The position numbers were made by a program, and so were the translations under genes. 64,000 bases of DNA. Origin: Escherichia coli. Its GTDB lineage: Bacteria; Pseudomonadota; Gammaproteobacteria; Enterobacterales; Enterobacteriaceae. Positions 2,637 through 63,807 of the stretch are shown piece by piece. The notes beneath the pieces were generated by a model that made no database searches, was not told the origin of the DNA, and saw only the letters and a list, made by a program, of their open reading frames with translations. Each line of letters opens with the position of its first letter. The stretch's first letter is position 1. The DNA is taken from assembly GCF_045037415.1 (NCBI RefSeq), contig NZ_CP173438.1. One strand, written 5' to 3'.

Positions 2637-2721
<85 letters not shown>

Positions 2722-18531: not shown

Positions 18532-20328
18532 ATGCTTAAACGTTGTCTCTCTCCGCTCACCCTGGTTAATCAGGTTGCGCTTATTGTGTTGCTTTCTACT
18601 GCTATTGGACTGGCAGGGATGGCGGTTTCTGGCTGGCTGGTGCAAGGCGTTCAGGGCAGCGCCCATGCGATCAACAAAGCGGGATCGCTGCGCATGCAAA
18701 GTTACCGTCTGTTGGCAGCAGTGCCATTAAGCGAGAAAGACAAGCCCTTAATTAAAGAGATGGAACAAACAGCATTTAGCGCCGAGTTGACTCGAGCAGC
18801 AGAACGAGACGGGCAACTGGCGCAATTACAGGGTTTACAAGATTACTGGCGTAATGAACTGATCCCTGCACTGATACGTGCACAAAACCGCGAAACGGTG
18901 TCAGCGGATGTCAGCCAGTTTGTTGCCGGGCTTGATCAGCTGGTATCTGGTTTTGATCGCACCACGGAAATGCGCATTGAGACAGTGGTGCTGGTCCATC
19001 GGGTAATGGCGGTATTTATGGCACTTTTACTGGTATTCACTATTATCTGGTTGCGGGCGAGATTGCTACAACCGTGGCGGCAACTGCTGGCAATGGCGAG
19101 TGCCGTCAGCCATCGCGATTTTACCCAACGCGCAAACATCAGCGGGCGCAACGAAATGGCGATGCTTGGAACTGCGTTGAACAATATGTCTGCAGAACTG
19201 GCGGAAAGTTATGCCGTACTTGAGCAGCGGGTTCAGGAGAAAACCGCTGGGCTGGAGCATAAAAATCAGATCCTCTCTTTTTTATGGCAGGCTAACCGCC
19301 GTTTGCATTCCCGCGCCCCGCTGTGTGAACGCCTGTCACCTGTACTCAACGGCTTACAGAATTTAACCCTGCTACGTGATATCGAACTGCGGGTGTATGA
19401 CACTGATGATGAAGAGAATCATCAGGAGTTTACCTGCCAGTCAGATATGACTTGTGATGATAAAGGCTGCCAGCTCTGCCCGCGCGGCGTATTACCCGTT
19501 GGCGATCGCGGCACAACCCTGAAGTGGCGGCTGGCTGACACTCATACGCAGTACGGTATTTTGCTGGCGACCCTGCCGCAGGGGCGTCATCTTAGCCATG
19601 ATCAACAACAACTGGTGGATACCCTGGTTGAACAACTCACCGCCACGCTGGCGCTGGATCGCCATCAGGAACGTCAGCAACAGTTGATCGTGATGGAAGA
19701 GCGTGCCACCATTGCGCGCGAACTGCATGATTCTATTGCCCAATCTCTCTCTTGCATGAAGATGCAGGTGAGTTGCTTACAGATGCAGGGCGATGCGCTG
19801 CCAGAAAGCAGCCGCGAACTGTTAAGTCAGATCCGTAACGAACTGAATGCATCCTGGGTGCAGTTGCGTGAATTGCTCACCACATTCCGTTTGCAGCTCA
19901 CCGAGCCTGGATTACGTCCGGCGCTGGAGGCGAGTTGCGAAGAGTACAGCGCCAAATTTGGCTTCCCGGTGAAGCTGGATTATCAATTGCCGCCTCGTCT
20001 GGTGCCTTCGCATCAGGCAATCCACTTGTTGCAAATTGCCCGTGAGGCATTAAGTAACGCCCTCAAACATTCGCAAGCGAGTGAGGTCGTGGTGACGGTG
20101 GCGCAAAACGATAATCAGGTCAAACTGACCGTCCAGGATAACGGCTGCGGCGTGCCTGAAAATGCCATCCGCAGCAATCACTACGGCATGATAATAATGC
20201 GCGACCGTGCGCAAAGTTTACGAGGCGATTGCCGCGTCCGCCGTCGTGAATCAGGTGGCACCGAAGTGGTGGTCACCTTTATTCCCGAAAAAACTTTCAC
20301 AGACGTCCAAGGAGATACCCATGAGTAA
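18532..20328 (+). CDS. narX: nitrate/nitrite sensor histidine kinase
   Basis: 598-aa ORF with two N-terminal TM segments, a HAMP region, the H-box ([11 protein letters not shown]) and an ATPase domain; stop overlaps the narL start. Confidence 0.95.
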
Positions 20329-20970
20329 TCAGGAACCGGCTACTATCCTGCTGATCGACGATCACCCGATGTTGCGAACTGGCGTAAAACAGCTTATCAG
20401 TATGGCACCAGATATCACTGTGGTTGGCGAAGCGAGTAATGGCGAACAGGGTATTGAACTGGCGGAGTTCTTGATCCCGATCTGATCCTGTTAGATCTCA
20501 ATATGCCCGGCATGAACGGTCTGGAAACGCTGGATAAACTGCGCGAAAAGTCCCTCTCCGGGCGCATTGTGGTATTCAGCGTCTCTAACCATGAAGAAGA
20601 TGTGGTCACCGCACTGAAACGCGGCGCGGATGGCTATCTGTTAAAAGATATGGAACCGGAAGATCTGCTGAAAGCGTTACATCAGGCAGCTGCTGGCGAA
20701 ATGGTATTAAGCGAAGCATTAACGCCTGTTCTGGCCGCCAGCTTGCGCGCTAACCGTGCCACTACTGAGCGCGATGTTAACCAGTTAACCCCACGCGAGC
20801 GCGATATTCTCAAGCTGATTGCCCAGGGTTTGCCGAACAAGATGATTGCCCGCCGCCTGGACATCACCGAAAGCACAGTAAAAGTTCACGTCAAGCACAT
20901 GCTGAAGAAAATGAAGCTAAAGTCTCGCGTGGAAGCTGCGGTATGGGTGCATCAGGAGCGCATTTTCTGA
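20321..20970 (+). pseudogene. narL: nitrate/nitrite response regulator NarL, interrupted by a 1-bp frameshift
   Basis: The ATG at 20321 gives [49 protein letters not shown], then the frame breaks near 20466-20470 (reads GAGTTCTTGAT where TCTCTT is expected from memory of K-12) and hits TGA at 20483; the rest of NarL ([17 protein letters not shown]... to the LuxR HTH) continues in another frame as ORF 20503..20970. Confidence 0.75.
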
Positions 20971-25400: not shown

Positions 25401-25804
25401 CAGTTATATCTCCTCCGATGACGGAAATCGGGGGAGATAATATAAATTCCTGCTTATTATATTTCTTCATACTAGCTGGACAGGTTGTTAATCAGAATTG
25501 CAAGCCTGTACCACAACCTGCACGAAATGACTGCAACAGCTGTTGAAAAACCGGAATGTACTCTTTATTGCAAACATTTCAGGGATGAAGTGAAGATGAA
25601 TTGCGACGTAGTATCCACACCAAGCCGGCGTTATCCGGTGAGGCGCAATGTTGCGGGGGCTTTATCCCTGGTGGCATTGGTTGCTGGAAAGAGAAAACCC
25701 CCGCACGTTGAGAGGTACAACCTGACAACAGAACGGGGGCTAATCTTGAACCAGAACAATTCAAGAATAGCCGCAAAATGTTGTCATTACAACAAGGCGG
25801 CTAT

Positions 25805-38490: not shown

Positions 38491-38541
38491 GAGTACATGG
38501 ATGAGTACAACATTCTTCCATCTTCATTTTAAGTGAGTACA
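38491..38541 (+). repeat. three direct copies of GAGTACA (ATGAGTACA / GTGAGTACA) upstream of the integrase gene
   Basis: Copies at 38491-38497, 38503-38509 and 38535-38541; candidate arm-type integrase-binding sites. Confidence 0.5.
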
Positions 38542-38573
38542 ATAACGGTATAATAAATAAACAAGGCCCCGTT

Positions 38574-39749
38574 ATGCTCACTGATACGCAATGCCGCACT
38601 GCTAAGCCGAAAGAAAAACTCTATCGACTTAATGATTTCAATGGTCTCTACCTCGAAGTGAAACCCAATGGTAAAAAGGCATGGCGCTATCGGTTTAAAC
38701 TCAACGGTAAATCCAGCATGTTTGCGCTGGGTGAGTACCCGACGGTAAAACTTGCCGAAGCTCGCGAGAAATGCGAGCAAGCGCGTAAGCAAGTCGCAGA
38801 TGGAGTTAGCCCAACACAGGCTCGTCAGTTAGATAAGATCCGCAAGGTCAACGACGCATCCAACACCTTTGAGCTAATCGCTAAAGAATGGTTGCAGATG
38901 AAAGACTGGGCCGGAATTACCAAAACGCGGCGACTGGATATGCTTGAACGTGTGGTTTTTCCCGCCATCGGTAAGCTCCCTGTCAGAGAGATCACTCCAC
39001 ACCATATACTTAAAATTCTTCAGGAAACCGCTAAACGAGGAGCACCAACAGTTGCCGCTGAAGCCCGTCGCACCATTTCATCAGTTTTTGAGTTGGCAGT
39101 CGCGACGCTTAGAGCTGATAGCGATCCCGTATGGCCTGTGCGCAAGGCCCTTCCGGCTAATAAGACACAGCACAAACAGGCACTAAATCCCCAACAAATC
39201 GGAAAGTTACTAAGCTGTTTTGACAATAGTCGTGGCTCGTATCAGGTTAACTATTGCATGTGGCTTATGTGGTGGACATTGGCGCGTCCTGCAGAAGCCA
39301 CCGAAGCAGAATGGACAGAATTCAATCTTGATAACGCCCTATGGACTATTCCGGCAGCGCGAATGAAAGCCCGCAGAGAACACGTTATTCCCCTACCCTT
39401 CCAAGCTGTCAAAATGCTCAGAACACTACAGGGATTAACCGGGCATCGGCAGCACCTTTTCCCGGGCAGAGACAATCCGCTAGGTCCAATGACATCGCAC
39501 TCACTGCGCCAGCTACTTAAAAGCCTCGGCTGGAGTGGTACATATAGCCCACATGCAACCCGGACCACAGGAAGTACCCGTTTAAACGAGTTGGGCTATC
39601 GACCTGATGCTATTGAGGCCCAACTTGCGCACGCTGATACCAACAATGTTCGTCGCACATACAACCATGCAACTTATCTTGATGAGCGTAAAGTGATGAT
39701 GCAGGAATGGGCTGATATGTTGGACAAATGGGTAGCAGGATTCAAGTAG
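38574..39749 (+). CDS. int: P4-type tyrosine integrase
   Basis: 391-aa ORF; N-terminus MLTDTQCRTAKPKEKLYRLNDFNGLYLEVKPNGKKAWRYRFKLNGK is the typical P4-family arm-binding domain; C-terminal catalytic motifs (HSLRQ, HATRTTGSTRLNELGY); first gene after ychF. Confidence 0.9.
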   Translation: MLTDTQCRTAKPKEKLYRLNDFNGLYLEVKPNGKKAWRYRFKLNGKSSMFALGEYPTVKLAEAREKCEQARKQVADGVSPTQARQLDKIRKVNDASNTFELIAKEWLQMKDWAGITKTRRLDMLERVVFPAIGKLPVREITPHHILKILQETAKRGAPTVAAEARRTISSVFELAVATLRADSDPVWPVRKALPANKTQHKQALNPQQIGKLLSCFDNSRGSYQVNYCMWLMWWTLARPAEATEAEWTEFNLDNALWTIPAARMKARREHVIPLPFQAVKMLRTLQGLTGHRQHLFPGRDNPLGPMTSHSLRQLLKSLGWSGTYSPHATRTTGSTRLNELGYRPDAIEAQLAHADTNNVRRTYNHATYLDERKVMMQEWADMLDKWVAGFK

Positions 39750-39859
39750 AACTTGCTGCACAAAGTGAACCACGAGGATAGAACTTATTCCTCAAGGTTC
39801 TGGAGTGCCCCCAAGCCCGTAGACAAATCTGCCCTATAGTTTGAGCATAGGAGGAGTCT

Positions 39860-40144
39860 ATGGGCACACCACGATTTACCCCAGAGTTTAAGGAAGAAGC
39901 TGTCCGTCAGGTCACTGAACGGGGCTATTCCGTTGCCGATGTTTCTGAACGCCTCGGCGTATCGGCTCACAGCCTTTATAAGTGGGTCCGGTCAGTCAGA
40001 CCGGATAACAGCGGGCATCAGGCGCAGGATTTACTGGATGCGCGGACGGAGATTCTCAGGCTTAAAGCGCAGCTTAAACGTACTGAGGAAGAACGGGATA
40101 TTCTGAAAAAGGCAGCGCGGTACTTTGCAAGGGAGCCCGACTGA
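39860..40144 (+). CDS. IS3-family transposase OrfA (HTH)
   Basis: 94-aa ORF MGTPRFTPEFKEEAVRQVTERGYSVADVSERLGVSAHSLYKWV; an A-rich slippery-like sequence near its 3' end fits an orfAB -1 frameshift. Confidence 0.85.
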   Translation: MGTPRFTPEFKEEAVRQVTERGYSVADVSERLGVSAHSLYKWVRSVRPDNSGHQAQDLLDARTEILRLKAQLKRTEEERDILKKAARYFAREPD

Positions 40145-40191
40145 AGTACCGCTTCATCAACGATCACCGTGAAATCTGGTCGATCGTAACA

Positions 40192-40546
40192 ATGTGTCGG
40201 GTTCTGAAGGTCGCCCGTGCGGGATTTTACGTCTGGCTTCATCGCCCTGTTTCTGCCGGAGAAAAGGATAATCAGCGGTTGCTGGAGCTCATCCGCGATG
40301 CTTATGCACTGAGCGGCGGAGTCTACGGTTATCGCAGGGTTCACGGCGATCTTCGTGAAATCGGTGAAGTATGCAGCAGAAACCGTGTTGCCAGAATCAT
40401 GAAGCGGAACAGGATACAGGCCGTACATGGCTATAAGGTCCCGCGTGGCGTCAGGGGAAGGCCGTCACTGATAGCTCCTAATCGCGTACAGAGGGAATTT
40501 ACGATGGTAAAACCCAACCAGGTGTGGGTGACTGATATTACCTACA
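40192..40546 (+). pseudogene. IS3-family transposase OrfB, 5' exon (interrupted by the group II intron)
   Basis: Reading frame through ...KPNQVWVTDITY ends at the intron 5' boundary at 40547; the last residues of the 139-aa ORF in the track are intron-encoded. Confidence 0.75.
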
Positions 40547-42815
40547 GTGTGCCCGGAGTTCAGGGCGGGCATGGATGCTTAAATGAACCGCGAGTCTGTC
40601 TGGAATATTGAGCCGGTAACTCACGATGAGAAACCCAACAATCCCACCGGGTGTGACGGTGGAGAACCTGAGCGGCAGTGACCTGCGGCATGCCCGCAGG
40701 GTGATGTAACCCGCTGACAACGGGGATTGAGGCGAGATCACTAAGCCGAGATGATCCTCAAGGTTAAGTACTGAAAGGCTGAAGAACATGAACCCGTTAA
40801 TCCGCCTCTGTGGGTTGAAAACGTCACCACGGCCTACGTGATCTGACAGGCCGTGCAGGAGGAACTGGCAGTGATACGTAAGCACTGCCGGTCGAAGGTG
40901 TTTTGACATGTATGCGAAACACCGGGGCAGCAGCGTCTATCACGCTTGCGTTGCTGACTTCTGCCAACTTGCGGCAAGCAAGGATAAAGAGTGCGACGGG
41001 CAGCCTCCTCAGTATGCCTGAGTCCAGGCAGGTAAACCGGGGAAGGTCAGCGACGGATGTTAAGGGGGCATGGCTCCGATGACGCGCTGGCTGGCGGAGC
41101 TTCCGTAGTAGTCCGCGATGGGGAAAGCCCATTACATGGCGAAGGGAAGCAGTTTGAATGTGTTTGCGACGTGAATTAACTGACCTAACGAGGTGAAGAC
41201 CTTTGATAATCAGCGAAATGCAACGCAAGCTTGCCACATGGGCAGTCACCGATCCGTCCCTACGGATTCAACGGCTGCTGCGTCTGATAACACAACCAGA
41301 ATGGCTGGCTGAAGCGGCGCGGATCACGCTTTCATCAAAGGGGGCCCATACCCCCGGCGTTGATGGCGTGAACAAAACAATGCTACAGGCCAGACTGGCT
41401 GTTGAGCTGCAAATCCTCAGGGATGAATTACTCTCAGGCCACTACCAGCCCTTGCCCGCCAGACGGGTTTACATCCCTAAAAGCAACGGCAAACTGCGAC
41501 CACTGGGTATCCCCGCGTTGCGGGATCGTATTGTTCAGCGGGCCATGCTGATGGCGATGGAGCCGATATGGGAGAGTGATTTTCATACGCTCTCATATGG
41601 CTTCCGGCCTGAGCGCAGTGTCCACCACGCGATCCGCACGGTGAAATTACAGCTCACAGACTGTGGTGAAACCCGGGGACGCTGGGTGATTGAAGGCGAC
41701 CTGTCCAGTTACTTCGACACCGTACATCATCGACTGCTGATGAAGGCTGTACGCCGCAGGATCAGTGACGCACGTTTCATGACTCTGCTGTGGAAAACCA
41801 TCAAGGCGGGACATATCGATGTCGGTCTCTTTCGGGCGGCCAGTGAAGGTGTGCCACAGGGCGGTGTTATATCGCCGCTATTATCGAACATCATGCTGAA
41901 TGAGTTCGATCAATACCTGCATGAGCGCTACCTGAGCGGGAAAGCCAGAAAAGATCGGTGGTACTGGAATAACAGTATCCAACGGGGCCGAAGTACGGCG
42001 GTCAGAGAAAACTGGCAGTGGAAACCCGCGGTGGCGTACTGCCGCTATGCCGATGATTTTGTCCTCATCGTCAAAGGCACCAAAGCACAGGCGGAAGCCA
42101 TCAGGGAGGAGTGTCGGGGTGTGCTCGAAGGCAGTCTGAAACTCAGGCTGAACATGGATAAGACTAAAATCACCCATGTTAATGACGGCTTTATCTTTCT
42201 GGGGCACAGGATCATTCGCAAACGCAGTCGTTATGGCGAGATGCGAGTGGTTCAACGATCCCGCAGGAGAAAGCCAGAAACTTCGCCGCATCGCTGACAG
42301 CACTGTTATCAGGCAACTACAGTGAAAGCAAAGTCGATATGGCTGAACAACTCAACCGAAAACTGAAAGGCTGGGCCATGTTCTATCAGTTCGTTGATTT
42401 TAAGGCCAAAGTCTTCAGTTATATCGACCGTGTCGTGTTCTGGAAGCTGGCTCACTGGCTGGCCCGCAAATACCGTACAGGTATCGCTTCCCTGATGAGG
42501 TGGTGGTGTAAATCACCGAAACCGGGTCAGAGCAAAACGTGGGTTTTATTTGGTAAAACCAATCACGGCAAGCTCAGCGGCGAAATACTGTACCGGTTGG
42601 TGGGGCAAGGCAAGAAGCTGTTCCGCTGGCGGCTACCCGAAGGTAATCCCTATCTGAGGACGGAGACCAGAAACACGTATACATCGCGCTTTACAGAAGT
42701 GGCAATGGCGTTCGCCAGCATTTAAATGGAGAGCCGGATGCGCTGAAAGGTGCACGTCCGGTTCGGGGAGGAGAGGCAGGGAAATAGTCCGACTACGCCC
42801 TGCCTCTTACTCTAC
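40547..42815 (+). mobile_element. group II intron (2269 bp) inserted in IS3-family orfB
   Basis: Starts GTGTG (GUGYG-like) and ends ...CTAC (AY); removing 40547-42815 restores a continuous OrfB reading ...VTDITYIRTWQGWLYLAVVIDLF...; encodes an RT/maturase. Confidence 0.8.
41203..42725 (+). pseudogene. group II intron-encoded reverse transcriptase/maturase, frameshifted between the RT and X domains
   Basis: RT-domain ORF 41203..42297 (motifs RPLGIPALRDRIVQ, YADDFVLIV) and maturase-domain ORF 42339..42725 (LNRKLKGWAMFY) are in different frames; the X-domain frame stays open upstream through ...STIPQEKARNFAASL, placing the shift near 42250-42260. Confidence 0.75.
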
Positions 42816-43264
42816 TCCGCACCTGGCAGGGTTGGCTGTATCTGGCGGTGGTTATCGATCTTTTTGCCCGTAATGTGGTGGGCTGGTCGATGAAACCAAC
42901 GCTGTCGCGCGAGCTGGCACTGGATGCGCTGCTGATGGCAGTCTGGCGGCGTAAGCCTGCAGAAAACGTCATAGTGCACAGCGATCAGGGCAGTCAGTAT
43001 GGCAGTGATGACTGGCAGCGGTTCTGCAGGGCCAACAATCTGGCGCCGAGTATGAGCCGTCGTGGCAACTGCTGGGATAATGCGGTGGCAGAATCGTTCT
43101 TCAGTTCACTGAAAAAAGAGCGCATCAGAAAGCGGATATATAAAACCCGGGACATGGCCCGGGCGGATATCTTCGATTACATTGAAGTGTTCTACAACCG
43201 GACCCGGCGCCACAGTCATCTGGGTGGCGTCAGCCCGGAGGCCTTCGAAAAGGCCTCACCGTGA
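42816..43264 (+). pseudogene. IS3-family transposase OrfB, 3' exon (DDE catalytic core)
   Basis: ORF ...LYLAVVIDLFARNVVGWSMKP...HSDQGSQYGS...WDNAVAESFF is the typical IS3 OrfB C-terminal region. Confidence 0.8.
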
Positions 43265-43870
43265 GGACAGAAACTGTCTACCGGAATGTGGTCACTCCAC
43301 TTGAGTCGTCTTGCTGTACTCCTTTGGCCAATCCATTTAGCTCTCCAACGTGATGTTTTCAACGGTAACAAAAGTAACAATATAACATGCAGTCATTTCA
43401 ACGATCTCAGTGTTACCACCCATTTTGAGCAATCATATCAAAGTAACAAAAGGGGAATATTGTGTGGTTCATCGCTGAAAGCAGGCTAAGATCACCTGCC
43501 GGCTATGCATATCATGAAAGTGCTAAATGTCCCGTCTTGTTTATCAACCGAGATAAGCTGTAATTGACTGAGTGGCTCCCCTTAATGCTTTTTCTCAATC
43601 AACAGATATGGATGGGACCAGTCAGTGACCTCTTTATATGAAAAAAACCCATCGTGCTCCAGTGCGCAAACGCCCTTATGACTGGCAACGTAATCGTAAA
43701 CAGCCCGGCTTTCCAGTCCCTGTAACATGTGCGAAAGCAGCTTTCGGCGCATCACATCTGACTTCCTGCGTTTACTGTCAACAACGGGTAATAAAGTGAT
43801 CCACTAACCGTCACCACCAACGGTTTAATATTGATCCACCTTGTTTACTCAGGATTAGCTTCAGGTATAA

Positions 43871-44177
<307 letters not shown>

Positions 44178-44339
44178 CTATGAAGTGGATAGCTGTAGCA
44201 GCAGGTCCGCTGTTGTGAAGCGAACCTTGATGCCTGCCCGTAGCGGCGGACGCCCATGGCACAGGTGCCGCAGGCGAGCATGCGTTCAACGGAGAGTCGG
44301 GTCCATTAGCTGATGCTGTCAGCGTATTTTTCGAGGAAT

Positions 44340-44543
44340 TTATGTAAGAAGCGTCAAAATGAAAGCGCCAACTAATAATGACAGAATTAATAAAATACCA
44401 GTAAGCGCGTATGCTATACCTTTTCCAATCTCGTTTTTTATGGTACGTCCAATTGAATAAAGGATTAAAGATACCGATAGCAAAACTATCAAAATAAAAC
44501 CATACACTAACGCTGCAAGTGGGCCTGGGTTACTCATAATCAT
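44340..44543 (-). CDS. hypothetical small membrane protein
   Basis: 67-aa ORF with two hydrophobic helices; coding status uncertain. Confidence 0.3.
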   Translation of the reverse strand: MIMSNPGPLAALVYGFILIVLLSVSLILYSIGRTIKNEIGKGIAYALTGILLILSLLVGAFILTLLT

Positions 44544-57229: not shown

Positions 57230-57739
57230 TCACACCTTCCCGTTCAGCTTTTCAAAGAGGCGCTTACGCTCATCTTCGGGCAGCTTCATGATTTGTACCG
57301 CCAGTTCAGAAACATTGGGCACCTGAGACATCAGATCGTCCTTTACCAGCCTGAGGGCCTGCTCCATCAGTTGCGCCCGCGAAGCTGGCGACATATTGCG
57401 ATACAGCTGCACCCAGAGGCTTAGCTGGCGATCACTGTCGTTGAGAGTAAACGCTTCGCCCTTAGCCCTGTTTCTCTCATCATCAAGCGACATTGTGGCT
57501 GCGCTAATATGGTAAACCACACCTTTCCCGGCAGTCCTTTTACGACGTATTTCCGGGTGCAGGGATGCCAGCTTTTCCAAGCGCATCCTGGCGCCACGCG
57601 CAGTGCCCGGCATCCCCTCAATATGAGTGAATTCCTCTGCTGTCAGCCAGTCTTTAGCCTCTTCAACAGAAGCTTCAGGATGAGTAGGTATAGCCGAAAC
57701 TGTTCTCTTACTGCTCATATAAATTTCACCAGATATCAA
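57230..57739 (-). CDS. phage Mu c-repressor-like DNA-binding protein
   Basis: 169-aa ORF with EGMPGTARGARMRL and C-terminal LPEDERKRLFEKLNG, resembling Mu repressor c (AADGMPGSVAGV...LPEEKRKEILSKYG from memory); divergent from a Ner-like gene as in Mu. Confidence 0.6.
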   Translation of the reverse strand: MISGEIYMSSKRTVSAIPTHPEASVEEAKDWLTAEEFTHIEGMPGTARGARMRLEKLASLHPEIRRKRTAGKGVVYHISAATMSLDDERNRAKGEAFTLNDSDRQLSLWVQLYRNMSPASRAQLMEQALRLVKDDLMSQVPNVSELAVQIMKLPEDERKRLFEKLNGKV

Positions 57740-58120: not shown

Positions 58121-58648
58121 ATGGCAACCACCATCACTGAAATAACGGAATGCTTTGAGTATTTTTTCAGTTCTCTTTATCGCAGGGAGTTCGTCAAAAC
58201 CCTGCGTCTGAACGAATGTAGCGAGCGGGAATTACTGCCTCTGGTACGTTGCTATTTGCTGGGTTGGTTTGCAGATAACGTCTCACCGGAAGTAAAAAGC
58301 AAACTGCCAGGAACTGTATCCGGGCACGGTTACATTGATTTTGTCATTGACGATGTGGCCGTTGAGTTTGCAGTACGTAAACCAACTGCGGCACGTTCCA
58401 ATGTCTCTGCGACCGTCAACAGTACAGAAGTAAAGAAATTGATGAAACATGACGGCAAAGCCTTGCTTGTGCTGTTTGATTTCTCTGACACACCCTATTC
58501 AGAAGAACAGATTGAATCCTTCCGCAACTGGCCCTCTCTTGGTCGAGGGAATCATCGCAAGTCTGCATTCAACGTCGTTTATTTCTTTGTGGAAAAACGC
58601 AGACCGCTGGCACTGGGGAAAATCACCAAAAACATCCGTATCACTTAA
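58121..58648 (+). CDS. hypothetical protein (possible PD-(D/E)xK-like fold)
   Basis: 175-aa ORF immediately after the ner-like gene; GYIDFVIDDVAVEFAVRK is weakly nuclease-like; assignment is speculative. Confidence 0.4.
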   Translation: MATTITEITECFEYFFSSLYRREFVKTLRLNECSERELLPLVRCYLLGWFADNVSPEVKSKLPGTVSGHGYIDFVIDDVAVEFAVRKPTAARSNVSATVNSTEVKKLMKHDGKALLVLFDFSDTPYSEEQIESFRNWPSLGRGNHRKSAFNVVYFFVEKRRPLALGKITKNIRIT

Positions 58649-60267: not shown

Positions 60268-62154
60268 TTACTTCATTAAAATAGCACTATTTTTTGAGGG
60301 CAGCGGGATAAGGGCTCTGCGCTCTCCATCCATTGCATGTTCACCCGCAAACCATTCGTAATGAACTTTATTCATGATTGATACCGGCGGTTCTTTATTC
60401 TCTATAACTATGATTTGTAAGGTATCAGGCAATTGGGTCAGTGAATGCCAGAAGCCTTCCTCAATACCAGCCGATATGGGTTCATCGAAGCCCGATACCG
60501 TAGCAGCGGCTTTCTTCTTATAACTTGTCAGCGGTGAATCAATCACGACTAGCCCAGGATGCGGGTATCCTTTTTTAATACAATATTTTAGTAATCCAAT
60601 GATGAAAGCTGAATAAAGAATGGCACGAACACCTTTACCGTGAGACTGCCGAGGTTGTCCATCAACAATGATGTCATACTCTTTTTCATTAAATGAAACG
60701 TCAGGCTCGGCACCCCATTTCCAGTCTTTTAAAACAGTTTCAATTTCTCTACAAAGTTCGGCCAGCGTACGGGTAGATAATCCCTCCCATTCGAGCCGTG
60801 GTTGACTGCTCTTTTCCAGCAGTATTTCTATATCCTTTTGATGTTTTAGTAACTCAAACCATCTCTGTCGATCATTCAACTCAGAGTCTCTTTCAGCTCG
60901 CTGCTCAATAGCTAAATCTAGGCTTTCTTTGGAAAGTGTAAGAAGAGGCTCAAAAGTATATTTGATCTGGTTCTTCATTCCATCCAAGCTTTCTTTTGAC
61001 TTATATCTGTCTATATTCAGAGCTTCTTTTCTTCGGTCAAGATCACTCATCGCTTTTTGCAGGCCTGCAAGGTATCCATGAATTTTTGCAGCTTCAGCTA
61101 AAGAAGAACGTCGGACTTCATTACTGTTCATTAATTTTTTAGCGTTCTCACTGTGTGGATGTAGTAAATTTTGTCCACAAAGGGAACAAGGAACTTCCTG
61201 AAGTGAAGTGAAATAGTGAGAACCTTCGGAAATAAAATCCAACCGCTTCAGGTCGGAATGGTAACGTTCTTCTAATAGGCTATATCTCGATTGAATTTCA
61301 GATACTCCCATTAACTGAGATTCTATTTTTAACGTTAACGCTGTCTCCATTTTTATTCCCTCGAGCAAGTCAGAAATAGCGGCTGCAGCCCTCTCAACTT
61401 CATCAATTGCTTGTGCAATCAATTGATCTGATAAATCATCTGCTGAGCTCGTTAATGGAAACTTGGGCGAACAAATTGAGAAACGTTCATCAAGTGGTCG
61501 AATCAAATCCTGGATGAATTCAAGCTTCGCCATCAACCTCGCTTTTACAATTTCAGGCTTTTCCTCTACGGTAACACCACCATCATCGTGCCCGGTAAGG
61601 ATGTATGAAAACATGCGTTTTCGAGCAGTGTCGTCATAACCGGAACGTCCCGTTACTGGCGAGTATTCGTCGATAATGGATACTTCATCTACCAAAAATA
61701 TAGGAGCGAGCGTTCGAATCGAGAAACGTTGCGTTTCGCCACGAGCATTCTTGCGAAGCTTCGCCTCTTTGATCCCCGCAAAAGGGAAAAGTATGGACGT
61801 CACATCTGGCCCCTTACTCGTTCCTTTACGCACAGGAGCAATTATTTTACCTTCTCCATGGATGTCTTGAATAGCGACATCATGTGCCTCTAATTTCCCC
61901 CCCTCAAGACCGCGCTTGAGCGTTAACACCCCCCCTTCATCATTTTCGAATTCAACATAAAGATGGGTGTAATCGGTGGCCTCTTTAAGCTTTTTTTTGA
62001 GTTTTTCGGCACCAAGAATGTAGTCAAGACAACTCACAAGGTAACTTTTCCCAGTATCAGATTCCCCTGCTAGAATATTCGCACCCTTATAGAAATCAAC
62101 ATAAGCGTCTTGAACGCTGTTTCCGCGCAATAGTATTTTTCTTATACGAAGCAT
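60268..62154 (-). CDS. Rad50/SMC-like ABC ATPase with coiled coil and central CxxC hook (LmuB/DdmC-like)
   Basis: ORF 60268..62175; start set at the ATG at 62154 (MLRIRKILLRG); N-terminal Walker A GESDTGKSYL, long helical middle with CSLCGQ near the midpoint, C-terminal Walker B/D-loop (GLVVIDSPLTSY); start lies 1 nt after the upstream gene's stop. Confidence 0.75.
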   Translation of the reverse strand: MLRIRKILLRGNSVQDAYVDFYKGANILAGESDTGKSYLVSCLDYILGAEKLKKKLKEATDYTHLYVEFENDEGGVLTLKRGLEGGKLEAHDVAIQDIHGEGKIIAPVRKGTSKGPDVTSILFPFAGIKEAKLRKNARGETQRFSIRTLAPIFLVDEVSIIDEYSPVTGRSGYDDTARKRMFSYILTGHDDGGVTVEEKPEIVKARLMAKLEFIQDLIRPLDERFSICSPKFPLTSSADDLSDQLIAQAIDEVERAAAAISDLLEGIKMETALTLKIESQLMGVSEIQSRYSLLEERYHSDLKRLDFISEGSHYFTSLQEVPCSLCGQNLLHPHSENAKKLMNSNEVRRSSLAEAAKIHGYLAGLQKAMSDLDRRKEALNIDRYKSKESLDGMKNQIKYTFEPLLTLSKESLDLAIEQRAERDSELNDRQRWFELLKHQKDIEILLEKSSQPRLEWEGLSTRTLAELCREIETVLKDWKWGAEPDVSFNEKEYDIIVDGQPRQSHGKGVRAILYSAFIIGLLKYCIKKGYPHPGLVVIDSPLTSYKKKAAATVSGFDEPISAGIEEGFWHSLTQLPDTLQIIVIENKEPPVSIMNKVHYEWFAGEHAMDGERRALIPLPSKNSAILMK

Positions 62155-62155
62155 G

Positions 62156-62671
62156 TTATAAATCCAGTAGATCAATTGCGGTCAATCGGTCGAATTCAGA
62201 ACCCCATTGCCCCACATTCTGAGATATATATGAAGCAAGTTCTTCATCCGTATATTCATAGAATTGCTTTGTGACCCAAGAGGCACGTTCTGCGAGCTCT
62301 TTTGAATACTGTGACATCAAAAGCCGCACAAACCTTCCTGTTAAATTGGTAGCCTGATACAAAATACCTTCGGCAGCAAAGACAACCTTAATCAATTCTC
62401 TTGATAGCATTAAATGCAGCCCTGCCTGAATTGCGCTTCGCTTAACAAGAAGCTCTGCTCCCCGGTGAGGAACTGCTGGATGAAGGCTTTTAGGCCCCCT
62501 AGGTACGTCACTGGTATGCACAAGAAGATAGTCATACGAAACTATCCTTTGTAGGTCCATTGCTACATTGTCCGCTGCATCCAATATGAACAGAGCACGA
62601 AATCCATACTCCAGCGGAGTGTTAAAAGGTCTCTGCTCAAAGTTTCCTTCAAATACTTGCATTTCGCTCAT
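62156..62671 (-). CDS. small middle-component protein (LmuC/DdmB-like)
   Basis: ORF 62156..62683 opens with a non-ATG codon; the ATG at 62671 (MSEMQVFEG) overlaps the upstream stop as ATGA; about 171 aa, no recognisable catalytic motif. Confidence 0.6.
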   Translation of the reverse strand: MSEMQVFEGNFEQRPFNTPLEYGFRALFILDAADNVAMDLQRIVSYDYLLVHTSDVPRGPKSLHPAVPHRGAELLVKRSAIQAGLHLMLSRELIKVVFAAEGILYQATNLTGRFVRLLMSQYSKELAERASWVTKQFYEYTDEELASYISQNVGQWGSEFDRLTAIDLLDL

Positions 62672-63807
62672 GGATTGCACCAATTAATCAAGTTTGTATT
62701 GGCTAGTTGGTGGCATATACCTTCACGATCCTTATTCGTTACGTGAATGGCAAGTGGGTGCGCACCAAGTTGCAGGGTCTGAGCGGCCTTGACGGTATTT
62801 TTTAACCGAAGGAGTGGAGTCCCTGTCAGGTCAGAGGTGTAGTGATACAGACCATCATCAAACTCTACAAGTAAAGAATTAAAGAATTCTTGATTCGCCA
62901 TTTGGTCCCTAGCGAGTTCCTTTAGCCCTTCCGAGCAATAAAAAGTTATTCGGGACCGTTCAAAGAGTTTTACATGGCTGATACTTGATTGAAAATCAAC
63001 TAAATCTCGCACGTTGGTTTTGATATCAGCGCTGATAACTGAAAAGAGTTGTTCAATATATACAGTTTCAATGGGAGCCACAGATGATGGGGGCCTAGTT
63101 GGTGGATCCCGCTCAATTAATGGTGCGCCAAAGACCATAAGATGAAAAGAGGTTTTACTGTGTTCGGCAAGTATCTCAATAGGCTGTTTTGCATGAAAAA
63201 TACTAAAATCAAACTCTTTAATATATTTTTCAAGTTCAGGCGTCAGGTCAACACTATGTTTCGATGTAATTTGCTTTGAAAAAGTTGCCCACTCGGATAG
63301 CATTTTCTCTTTGAGTTTAGTTGGATCATCTAGGAGGTCTTGGAATGGCGATGTTACCCCTTTATGTGTAACAAAATGGTATTGTGTAGGTACTGTGTAG
63401 TCCTTGATGAAAGTATAATAGATAACTTTTGCAACTTCGATGCCTGCCTTAGGAAGGCCTAAATTCGCATCATAATGTTTGCATTGATATAAGTGCCATC
63501 TTCGAGGAACAGCATCAGATGGATCAAGCCATACAACAATATCTCTGCCTTTATCTCCTGCCCCGCCACGTTGTTGTACTTCGTTGACATATTGCTGACC
63601 AGCTAAGTATTCAGAGGCCCATTCGAGTGTAAACCTTTCAAATTCGGCGGCGCTAAACTGTGCCAGACGATCCAAGGGGGCTATTGGAAGCCCTACACCT
63701 AACCCAAGCAGCCGAGCGTTCGCACCCGGCCACGTTGTAGGAGCAGAAAGCGCGCCAAGCGTCGAACTTGAATTTTGTTTCATCTTCTCTACCACCACAA
63801 CCTCCAT
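62668..63807 (-). CDS. putative effector with N-terminal PD-(D/E)xK-like (Cap4/DUF4297-like) nuclease motif (LmuA/DdmA-like)
   Basis: 379-aa ORF; GDKGRDIVVWLDPSD...WHLYQCKHY fits a D...(E/Q)xK nuclease core; first gene of a 3-gene coupled operon; alternative start at the ATG at 63783. Confidence 0.6.
   Translation of the reverse strand: MEVVVVEKMKQNSSSTLGALSAPTTWPGANARLLGLGVGLPIAPLDRLAQFSAAEFERFTLEWASEYLAGQQYVNEVQQRGGAGDKGRDIVVWLDPSDAVPRRWHLYQCKHYDANLGLPKAGIEVAKVIYYTFIKDYTVPTQYHFVTHKGVTSPFQDLLDDPTKLKEKMLSEWATFSKQITSKHSVDLTPELEKYIKEFDFSIFHAKQPIEILAEHSKTSFHLMVFGAPLIERDPPTRPPSSVAPIETVYIEQLFSVISADIKTNVRDLVDFQSSISHVKLFERSRITFYCSEGLKELARDQMANQEFFNSLLVEFDDGLYHYTSDLTGTPLLRLKNTVKAAQTLQLGAHPLAIHVTNKDREGICHQLANTNLINWCNP

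Follow-up and report, generated by a model that had tools for sequence, protein, structure and literature searches.

E.c.I4 in the IS3-family element ISEc24 of Escherichia coli: a group II intron whose split reading frame probably reflects a consensus error at an Eco31I site

Introduction

In a stretch of 64,000 nucleotides from an Escherichia coli genome (assembly GCF_045037415.1, contig NZ_CP173438.1; hereafter called the window), the transposase gene of ISEc24, an insertion sequence (IS) of the IS3 family, is interrupted by a group II intron whose own intron-encoded protein (IEP) is read in two different frames. The question raised by this locus is whether the split frame records a mobile element in decay, as the initial annotation of the window had proposed, or a base that was lost from the sequence and not from the DNA. 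We conclude that the window contains an ordinary, probably intact copy of the known intron E.c.I4 in ISEc24, with a frameshift that is most likely a consensus or basecalling artefact at the inner cytosine of an Eco31I site. We favor an artefact because all sister genomes are intact, because a second deletion, in narL, removes the same base of the same motif, and because varied errors fall on the same base pair in other assemblies. The structural part of the initial annotation, in which an intron lies in orfB and the reverse transcriptase (RT) and maturase are split in the sequence as given, stands, whereas the biological inference of decay is not supported.

A group II intron inserted precisely in the ISEc24 transposase gene

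The intron splits ISEc24 at 40546/42816, and when 40547-42815 is cut out the exons join as GTG ACT GAT ATT ACC TAC A/TC CGC ACC TGG, which encodes VTDITY/IRTWQGWLYLAVV. An uninterrupted form of the same element exists in strain 5392 of sequence type 131 (ST131), where ISEc24 occupies the same locus, with ychF and a P4-type integrase upstream of it, and has 0 mismatches to the joined exons of the window over 1230 bp. Since no base differs between this empty allele and the joined exons (100% identity), the proposed intron boundaries are exact, and the initial annotation was right that removal of this segment restores the OrfB frame. The intron ends, GUGUG (40547-40551) and AC (42814-42815), agree with the group II consensus GUGYG/AY. 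The Rfam model RF00029, which covers domains V and VI, aligns along its entire length to 42729-42815 (64.9 bits, gathering score 40, E=1.7e-10), and the match stops at the last intron base, which is the proposed 3′ splice site. An RNA fold of 42725-42815 has an energy of -48.2 kcal/mol (z = -4.9) and contains the domain V and domain VI features that define group II introns, namely a 34-nt helix with a GNRA loop (here GAAA), a 2-nt bulge and a bulged A at 42809. The insert of 2269 bp had been called a group II intron from its GTGTG...AC ends, and both the model match ending at the 3′ junction and the fold agree with that call.

By sequence, the insert is E.c.I4, which belongs to bacterial class A of the group II introns and has no endonuclease domain. 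In Table S4 of Leclercq and Cordaux (2012; PMC3522654), the copy E.c.I4-2b is entered at NC_009801 4848623-4850893, and the window intron is 99.78% identical over 2270 nt to this copy of E24377A and encodes the same protein, WP_001189123.1; membership in E.c.I4 is defined in that paper by at least 90% nucleotide identity to a named copy. The intron is also 99.8-100% identical to thousands of annotated copies, which excludes chance resemblance, and ~2,700 records hold copies identical to it apart from one gap. E.c.I4 matches 2,346 of the 5,426 complete E. coli genomes (~43%) as well as 1,833 plasmid records, and the median number of intron places per E.c.I4-carrying genome is 2.

E.c.I4 has been published as a class A intron, class A being without a DNA endonuclease domain, and it inserts at specific positions of IS3-like transposases, namely those of IS629, IS911, ISEc16 and ISEc31 (PMC3522654). 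Both traits are found here, as the IEP has no endonuclease domain and the homing position in IS3-family transposases is fixed, lying 1 base into the codon after D-x-T-Y in ISEc24, IS911/ISEc52 and IS629 at the loci that we fetched. Comparison with the known E. coli introns and their IS homing sites, which had been suggested for this locus, therefore leads to E.c.I4 and the D-x-T-Y site. The window intron further shares with E.c.I4 (equivalent to S.f.I1, of Escherichia and Shigella) the sense orientation and, once a missing C is restored, an IEP of 502 amino acids (aa). It differs from the published intron in its host, since ISEc24 is absent from the 2012 host list, and in a deposited sequence that is one base short. 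E.c.I2, with IS629 as the host, was considered as the identity of the insert and rejected, since in the literature the targets of E.c.I2 are Rhs-associated IS, with E.c.I4 as the intron of the IS3 family, and since sequence identity confirms E.c.I4. The occurrence of E.c.I4 in IS3-family elements is already known and has been described since 2002-2012; in the literature we found no paper that links ISEc24 to group II introns, and ISEc24 is a minor addition to the E.c.I4 host list.

The CP4-6 prophage of K-12 MG1655 (ykfC/eyeA) contains a 1764-nt 5′ part of E.c.I4 that is 99.6% identical and lies at the homologous site of IS911A, where ykfC is its truncated RT open reading frame (ORF). In K-12, IS5A has in fact cut the copy short, so that the X domain and domains V and VI are gone, whereas the window copy is full length. 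The K-12 small RNA eyeA (b4690) maps by homology of K-12 272580-272654 to window positions 40936-41010; it lies upstream of ykfC, in the part of the E.c.I4 remnant that forms domain I, and is a fragment of the group II intron ribozyme.

One missing cytosine divides the IEP

As given, the RT frame of the IEP starts at the ATG at 41218 and stops at 42297, and its product would consist of 345 native and 14 aberrant residues with no X domain. The initial annotation had seen that RT and maturase are in different frames with a shift near 42250, and alignment to intact copies resolves this shift to one C missing between 42251 and 42252, in the context GTGGT[C]TCAACGATCCCG, which is not a homopolymer. 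When the C is restored, the IEP becomes a single 502-aa ORF equal to WP_001189123.1, so that RT and X/maturase, which as given are spread over two frames, lie in one. The repaired IEP matches TIGR04416 (group II intron reverse transcriptase/maturase) with 341 bits (cut-off 300), and a Pfam search finds RVT_1 at residues 86-332 (2.2e-34) and GIIM at residues 356-421 (1.3e-10) as the only domains, with no endonuclease domain among them. The discrepancy between the two frames is most likely to be attributed to an error in the sequence.

It is almost inconceivable that ribosomes instead make the IEP by a programmed, regulated frameshift at 42251. The two-frame arrangement is the single point that speaks for such a device, but the E.c.I4 ORF is one 502-aa frame in the ~2,700 records, essentially all copies, and a slippery sequence is absent at 42251.

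Close relatives have the base, and a second deletion removes the same base of the same motif

The same ISEc24::E.c.I4 insertion is present in nine complete genomes, and in all nine the C is there and the 502-aa IEP is intact, with a span across the insertion locus of 6002 bp in each versus 6001 bp in the window. Seven records match the deleted form exactly, and none of them is any of the nine sister genomes. Between AH20E044, the closest relative, and the window, the C is the sole difference across 38500-44500, and over the 64 kb there are one single-nucleotide polymorphism (SNP) at 57321, two 1-bp deletions and a copy of IS1B found in AH20E044 alone. This IS1B sits at window positions 58292-58300, where a 9-bp overlap of the alignment is the target duplication.

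Both 1-bp deletions remove the C of GT[C]TC(N2-3)GATCCCG; the sequence TCTC(N2-3)GATCCCG is found exactly twice in the 64 kb, and the C has been lost in both places. The second deletion falls between 20468 and 20469 in narL (+ strand, ~20321-20970), in the context GAGT[C]TCTTGATCCCG, which is like that of the intron site, and it converts the gene to ORFs of 54 aa and 155 aa, cutting NarL, a core response regulator, after ~49 residues. This deletion occurs in 0 of the 5,421 complete genomes that match the stretch, and three Logan read-assemblies encode the shortened NarL N-terminus. One Logan contig with the deletion matches the window at 100% identity for 9.7 kb. A second, from the same accession series, is about 2% divergent (264 differences over 13.3 kb), and SNPs flank its deletion at distances of 49 nt upstream and 91 nt downstream. 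The third represents a third background with a T6 to T5 homopolymer error nearby. The same narL frameshift on unrelated haplotypes, absent from all finished genomes, points to a systematic error. The SNP at 57321, in a hypothetical island gene, is A in the window and C in 510 of 510 genomes holding the stretch; it lies 4 nt upstream of GAGAC and could be either a genuine private SNP or a third error tied to the motif. The private differences of the window, three in all, lie no more than 5 nt from GTCTC or GAGAC, and such positions make up 1.05% of the window.

These comparisons bear directly on the possibility that the 1-bp deletion is real and recent and truncates the RT before its thumb and the maturase (X) domain, so that the copy would no longer promote its own splicing or mobility, which we consider unlikely. 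A real deletion agrees with the sequence as given, in which the C is absent and the GIIM domain is removed from the product, with the finding of no second intron copy within the 64-kb window, and with published full-length E.c.I4 copies that have disrupted ORFs (PMC3522654), but it is at odds with the intact IEP of every sister genome, with a second private deletion that breaks narL at the same rare motif, with the occurrence of the identical narL deletion on divergent haplotypes in read-assemblies, and with the varied errors found elsewhere at exactly the methylated base pair of three Eco31I sites (see below). If the deletion were true, the window copy could provide neither RT nor maturase activity and would rely on a second copy acting in trans. 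On this same improbable reading, ISEc24 here would be inactive in any cell where no further E.c.I4 provides the IEP. The earlier proposal that the intron has lost its autonomy and that the IS is silenced is not supported, given the same sister genomes, narL deletion and errors at the methylated pair; loss of splicing support would in any case not automatically follow from the frameshift, because the IEP could come in trans from other copies of E.c.I4.

Varied, probably erroneous changes at the inner base pair of Eco31I sites

The missing C belongs to the second of three Eco31I sites in the intron, called A, B and C (Table 1). The ST131 strain EC958 carries an Eco31I system that modifies GGT-m5C-TC / GAG-m6A-CC, where m5C is 5-methylcytosine and m6A is N6-methyladenine; M2.EcoMI is predicted to produce GGT-m5C-TC, and M1.EcoMI produces GAG-m6A-CC at 100% of sites (Forde et al. 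2015, PMC4659465). Given this methylation pattern of EC958, the missing base is the predicted m5C, beside an m6A on the opposite strand, and the source strain of the window presumably has an Eco31I system as well. GGTCTC methylation is detectable in E. coli nanopore data, and methylation is a documented cause of systematic nanopore errors.

In other assemblies, the inner C of site A (41827) is deleted, changed from C to T, or preceded by an extra T, and the G of site C that is the partner of the methylated C (42665) is deleted in two plasmid assemblies. The E08 chromosome has deletions of the inner C:G pair at sites A and B, the E14 plasmid has an extra T at site A together with deletions at sites B and C, and the 98215 plasmid has C to T at site A with deletions at sites B and C. 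A look-up of the frameshifted 364-aa product led to GCA_052953235.1, in which a different 1-bp loss at site B, that of the neighboring T, is found at an ISEc52 locus with five homopolymer deletions within 7 kb. The ISEc52::E.c.I4 locus is covered in 779 genomes; it is 3551 bp in E08 and, among the matches listed, 3553 bp in every relative outside E07/E08/E12. As in methylation-linked long-read errors, one base pair of one motif is affected in varied form (deletion, C to T, insertion), with recurrence in unrelated assemblies and loci and with homopolymer errors alongside. Elsewhere in E08 (NZ_CM143900.1, ~854,607), a G8 run is reduced to G6 relative to AVS0750, which shortens the N-acetylneuraminate epimerase gene; this fits residual long-read consensus error in that assembly series.

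A reading that takes these changes at face value is that the GGT[C]TC differences are real and methylation-driven, with m5C hotspots or escape from Eco31I restriction eroding E.c.I4 in ST131-type strains. That every change in the intron falls on the predicted m5C:G pair would fit this, as would the C to T change at site A of the 98215 plasmid, which is the expected product of m5C deamination, yet we judge it very unlikely. Deamination gives transitions and not 1-bp deletions, a T insertion or loss of a neighboring T, the forms differ among near-clonal isolates (E07/E08 versus E12) and between chromosome and plasmid, homopolymer errors lie near the affected sites in the assemblies concerned, the narL site is not an Eco31I site, and a self-methylating strain has no reason to lose its own sites. 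The broader claim that loss of the C is real and, with the other Eco31I-site changes, reflects mutation or selection at methylated sites repeatedly inactivating E.c.I4 in ST131-type E. coli is decidedly unlikely; if true, it would leave non-autonomous E.c.I4 copies reliant on a trans-acting maturase.

Several observations also weigh against an artefact at the Eco31I site. The narL site is GAGTCTC, with A for the first G of the full Eco31I site, and Eco31I methylation alone therefore cannot account for both deletions. Within 48 kb of unique sequence in E08, 47 GTCTC sites (9 of them GGTCTC) are unaffected, and the window itself keeps seven further GGTCTC sites intact. A rule by which every GGTCTC is miscalled was rejected on these counts, and the motif effect is context-dependent and non-deterministic. 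E18, from the same project as E07, E08, E12 and E14, has the C at its ISEc24::E.c.I4 locus, and disrupted E.c.I4 ORFs do exist in nature, as full-length copies in SMS-3-5 and S. flexneri 2457T (PMC3522654). The sequencing platform of the window was presumed, and the artefact was judged on the assembled sequence. With these points taken into account, we still favor an error in the consensus at the inner cytosine, where a long-read miscall at GGT-m5C-TC / GAG-m6A-CC, methylated in ST131-type strains, would have led to the lost C.

The locus is biologically ordinary and the element in it already known. Its value lies in showing cleanly how some assemblies come to contain probably false pseudogenes, here ltrA and narL, at GTCTC/GGTCTC sites, which matters when long-read genomes are used to count inactivated regulators or mobile elements that seem to be "decaying".

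Proposed retrohoming of E.c.I4 into ISEc24

The same ISEc24 copy at the same locus is filled in 9 genomes and empty in many, with a precise junction, and on this comparison of alleles the filled and empty forms are probably the footprint of recent retrohoming in an ST131 sublineage. In the mechanism that we propose, E.c.I4 would retrohome into the ISEc24 transposase gene by recognizing the DNA that encodes the conserved motif W-x-x-D-x-T-Y, at the start of the DDE catalytic core, and would insert in the sense strand one base past the Tyr codon, the same spot as in IS911/ISEc52 and IS629. Because the intron is in the sense strand of orfB, the orfAB transcript would contain it. The 502-aa IEP would then bind its own RNA, fold the ribozyme and promote splicing, which would restore the transposase frame, and the excised ribonucleoprotein would invade further IS3-family elements by reverse splicing at their homologous DNA sites. 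From established group II intron biology, the window copy would presumably be capable of both splicing and mobility.

The host element and the parts of the ribozyme

The initial annotation had placed an IS3-family element at 39801-43299, and its naming as ISEc24 confirms this. Identical copies in RefSeq carry the product name "IS3-like element ISEc24 family transposase", and the OrfAB protein rebuilt through a -1 frameshift, of 378 aa, matches NCBIfam NF033516 (IS3 family transposase) with 427.9 bits (cut-off 160). The rebuilt protein has the Pfam domains HTH_Tnp_1, HTH_21 and rve (rve 6.2e-30, core residues 218-315), and the intron position after Tyr229 falls within this rve core, which is the DDE catalytic core. 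An identical intron-free ISEc24 copy is annotated in RefSeq as an intact transposase with a "programmed frameshift", and the exons of the window are 100% identical to the intact annotated ISEc24 at the same locus, with its helix-turn-helix (HTH) and rve domains. The terminal inverted repeats are imperfect, with ~20 of 25 bases matching between the left end and the reverse complement of the right end, and they begin with TG and end with CA, as in the 5′-TG...CA-3′ ends of the IS3 family. No 3-4 bp target-site duplication of ISEc24 is found, the flanks being TTC on the left and CTT on the right. In this the window copy, besides being interrupted by the intron, differs from a typical ISEc24 or IS3 copy, which has a 3-bp flanking direct repeat. 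The lack of a direct repeat would agree with a rearrangement of the island at a later time and does not decide membership.

In the ribozyme, the candidate exon-binding site 1 (EBS1), UGUGGGU, could pair with the last 7 nt of the ISEc24 5′ exon (ACCUACA) and, with G-U wobble, with the exon ends of IS911 (ACCUAUA) and IS629 (ACUUACG). No EBS2 site pairs with all three host exons (ISEc24, IS911 and IS629). A permissive Rfam search of 40400-42900 gave domain V/VI matches only, and no group II model for D1-D4.

Table 1. Coordinates of ISEc24, E.c.I4 and their parts in the window
Feature	Position	Strand	Remarks
ISEc24 (IS3 family), split by the intron	39801..43299	+	1230 bp without the intron
Left terminal inverted repeat	39801..39826	+	TGGAGTG...GTAGACA; end-to-end alignment
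orfA	39860..40144	+	94 aa; HTH_Tnp_1 (Pfam, 1.7e-17)
-1 frameshift site between orfA and orfB	40106-40111	+	AAAAAG
orfB 5′ exon	40111..40546	+	ends 1 base into the codon after Tyr229 of OrfAB (…VWVTDITY/I…)
Group II intron E.c.I4 (class A)	40547..42815	+	same strand as transposase; 2269 nt, intact copies 2270 nt
Candidate EBS1	40809..40815	+	UGUGGGU; proposed from pairing with 5′ exon ends
IEP residues 1-345, RT domain	41218..42251	+	YADD at active site
Eco31I site A	41824..41829	+	GGTCTC, intact in window
Eco31I site B	42249-42253 as given	+	GGT[C]TC, destroyed in window; gap 42251/42252
IEP residues 346-502, X/maturase and C-terminal extension	42252..42725	+	other frame than RT part, as given
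Eco31I site C	42663..42668	+	GAGACC, intact in window
Ribozyme domain V	42731..42764	+	AGC triad, GAAA loop, 2-nt bulge; Rfam alignment and fold
Ribozyme domain VI	42767..42813	+	single bulged A at 42809, candidate branch point (fold)
orfB 3′ exon	42816..43264	+	remaining rve core, rve_2/rve_3, stop codon
Right terminal inverted repeat	43274..43299	+	ends ...CACTCCA; end-to-end alignment

Genomic surroundings

The P4-type tyrosine integrase (window 38574-39749) follows immediately after ychF and stands at the head of a genomic island, and no tRNA gene is present at the ychF-integrase junction. The island contains ISEc24, pseudogenes of IS91 and of an ATP-binding protein, DUF3999 and DUF2339 genes, a second integrase and radC. 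In the annotation of the near-identical AH20E044 region, an "ABC-three component system" with candidate defense genes corresponds to window ~60268-63783 (- strand), and a gene for a retron Ec67-family RT/endonuclease lies just past the window end. An rdlD-type antitoxin RNA at 25692-25757 (- strand, 86.3 bits) adjoins an Ldr toxin gene, and a tRNA-Tyr gene lies at 2637-2718 (+ strand); these are normal parts of the core genome, belonging to the chaA-kdsA and purU regions.

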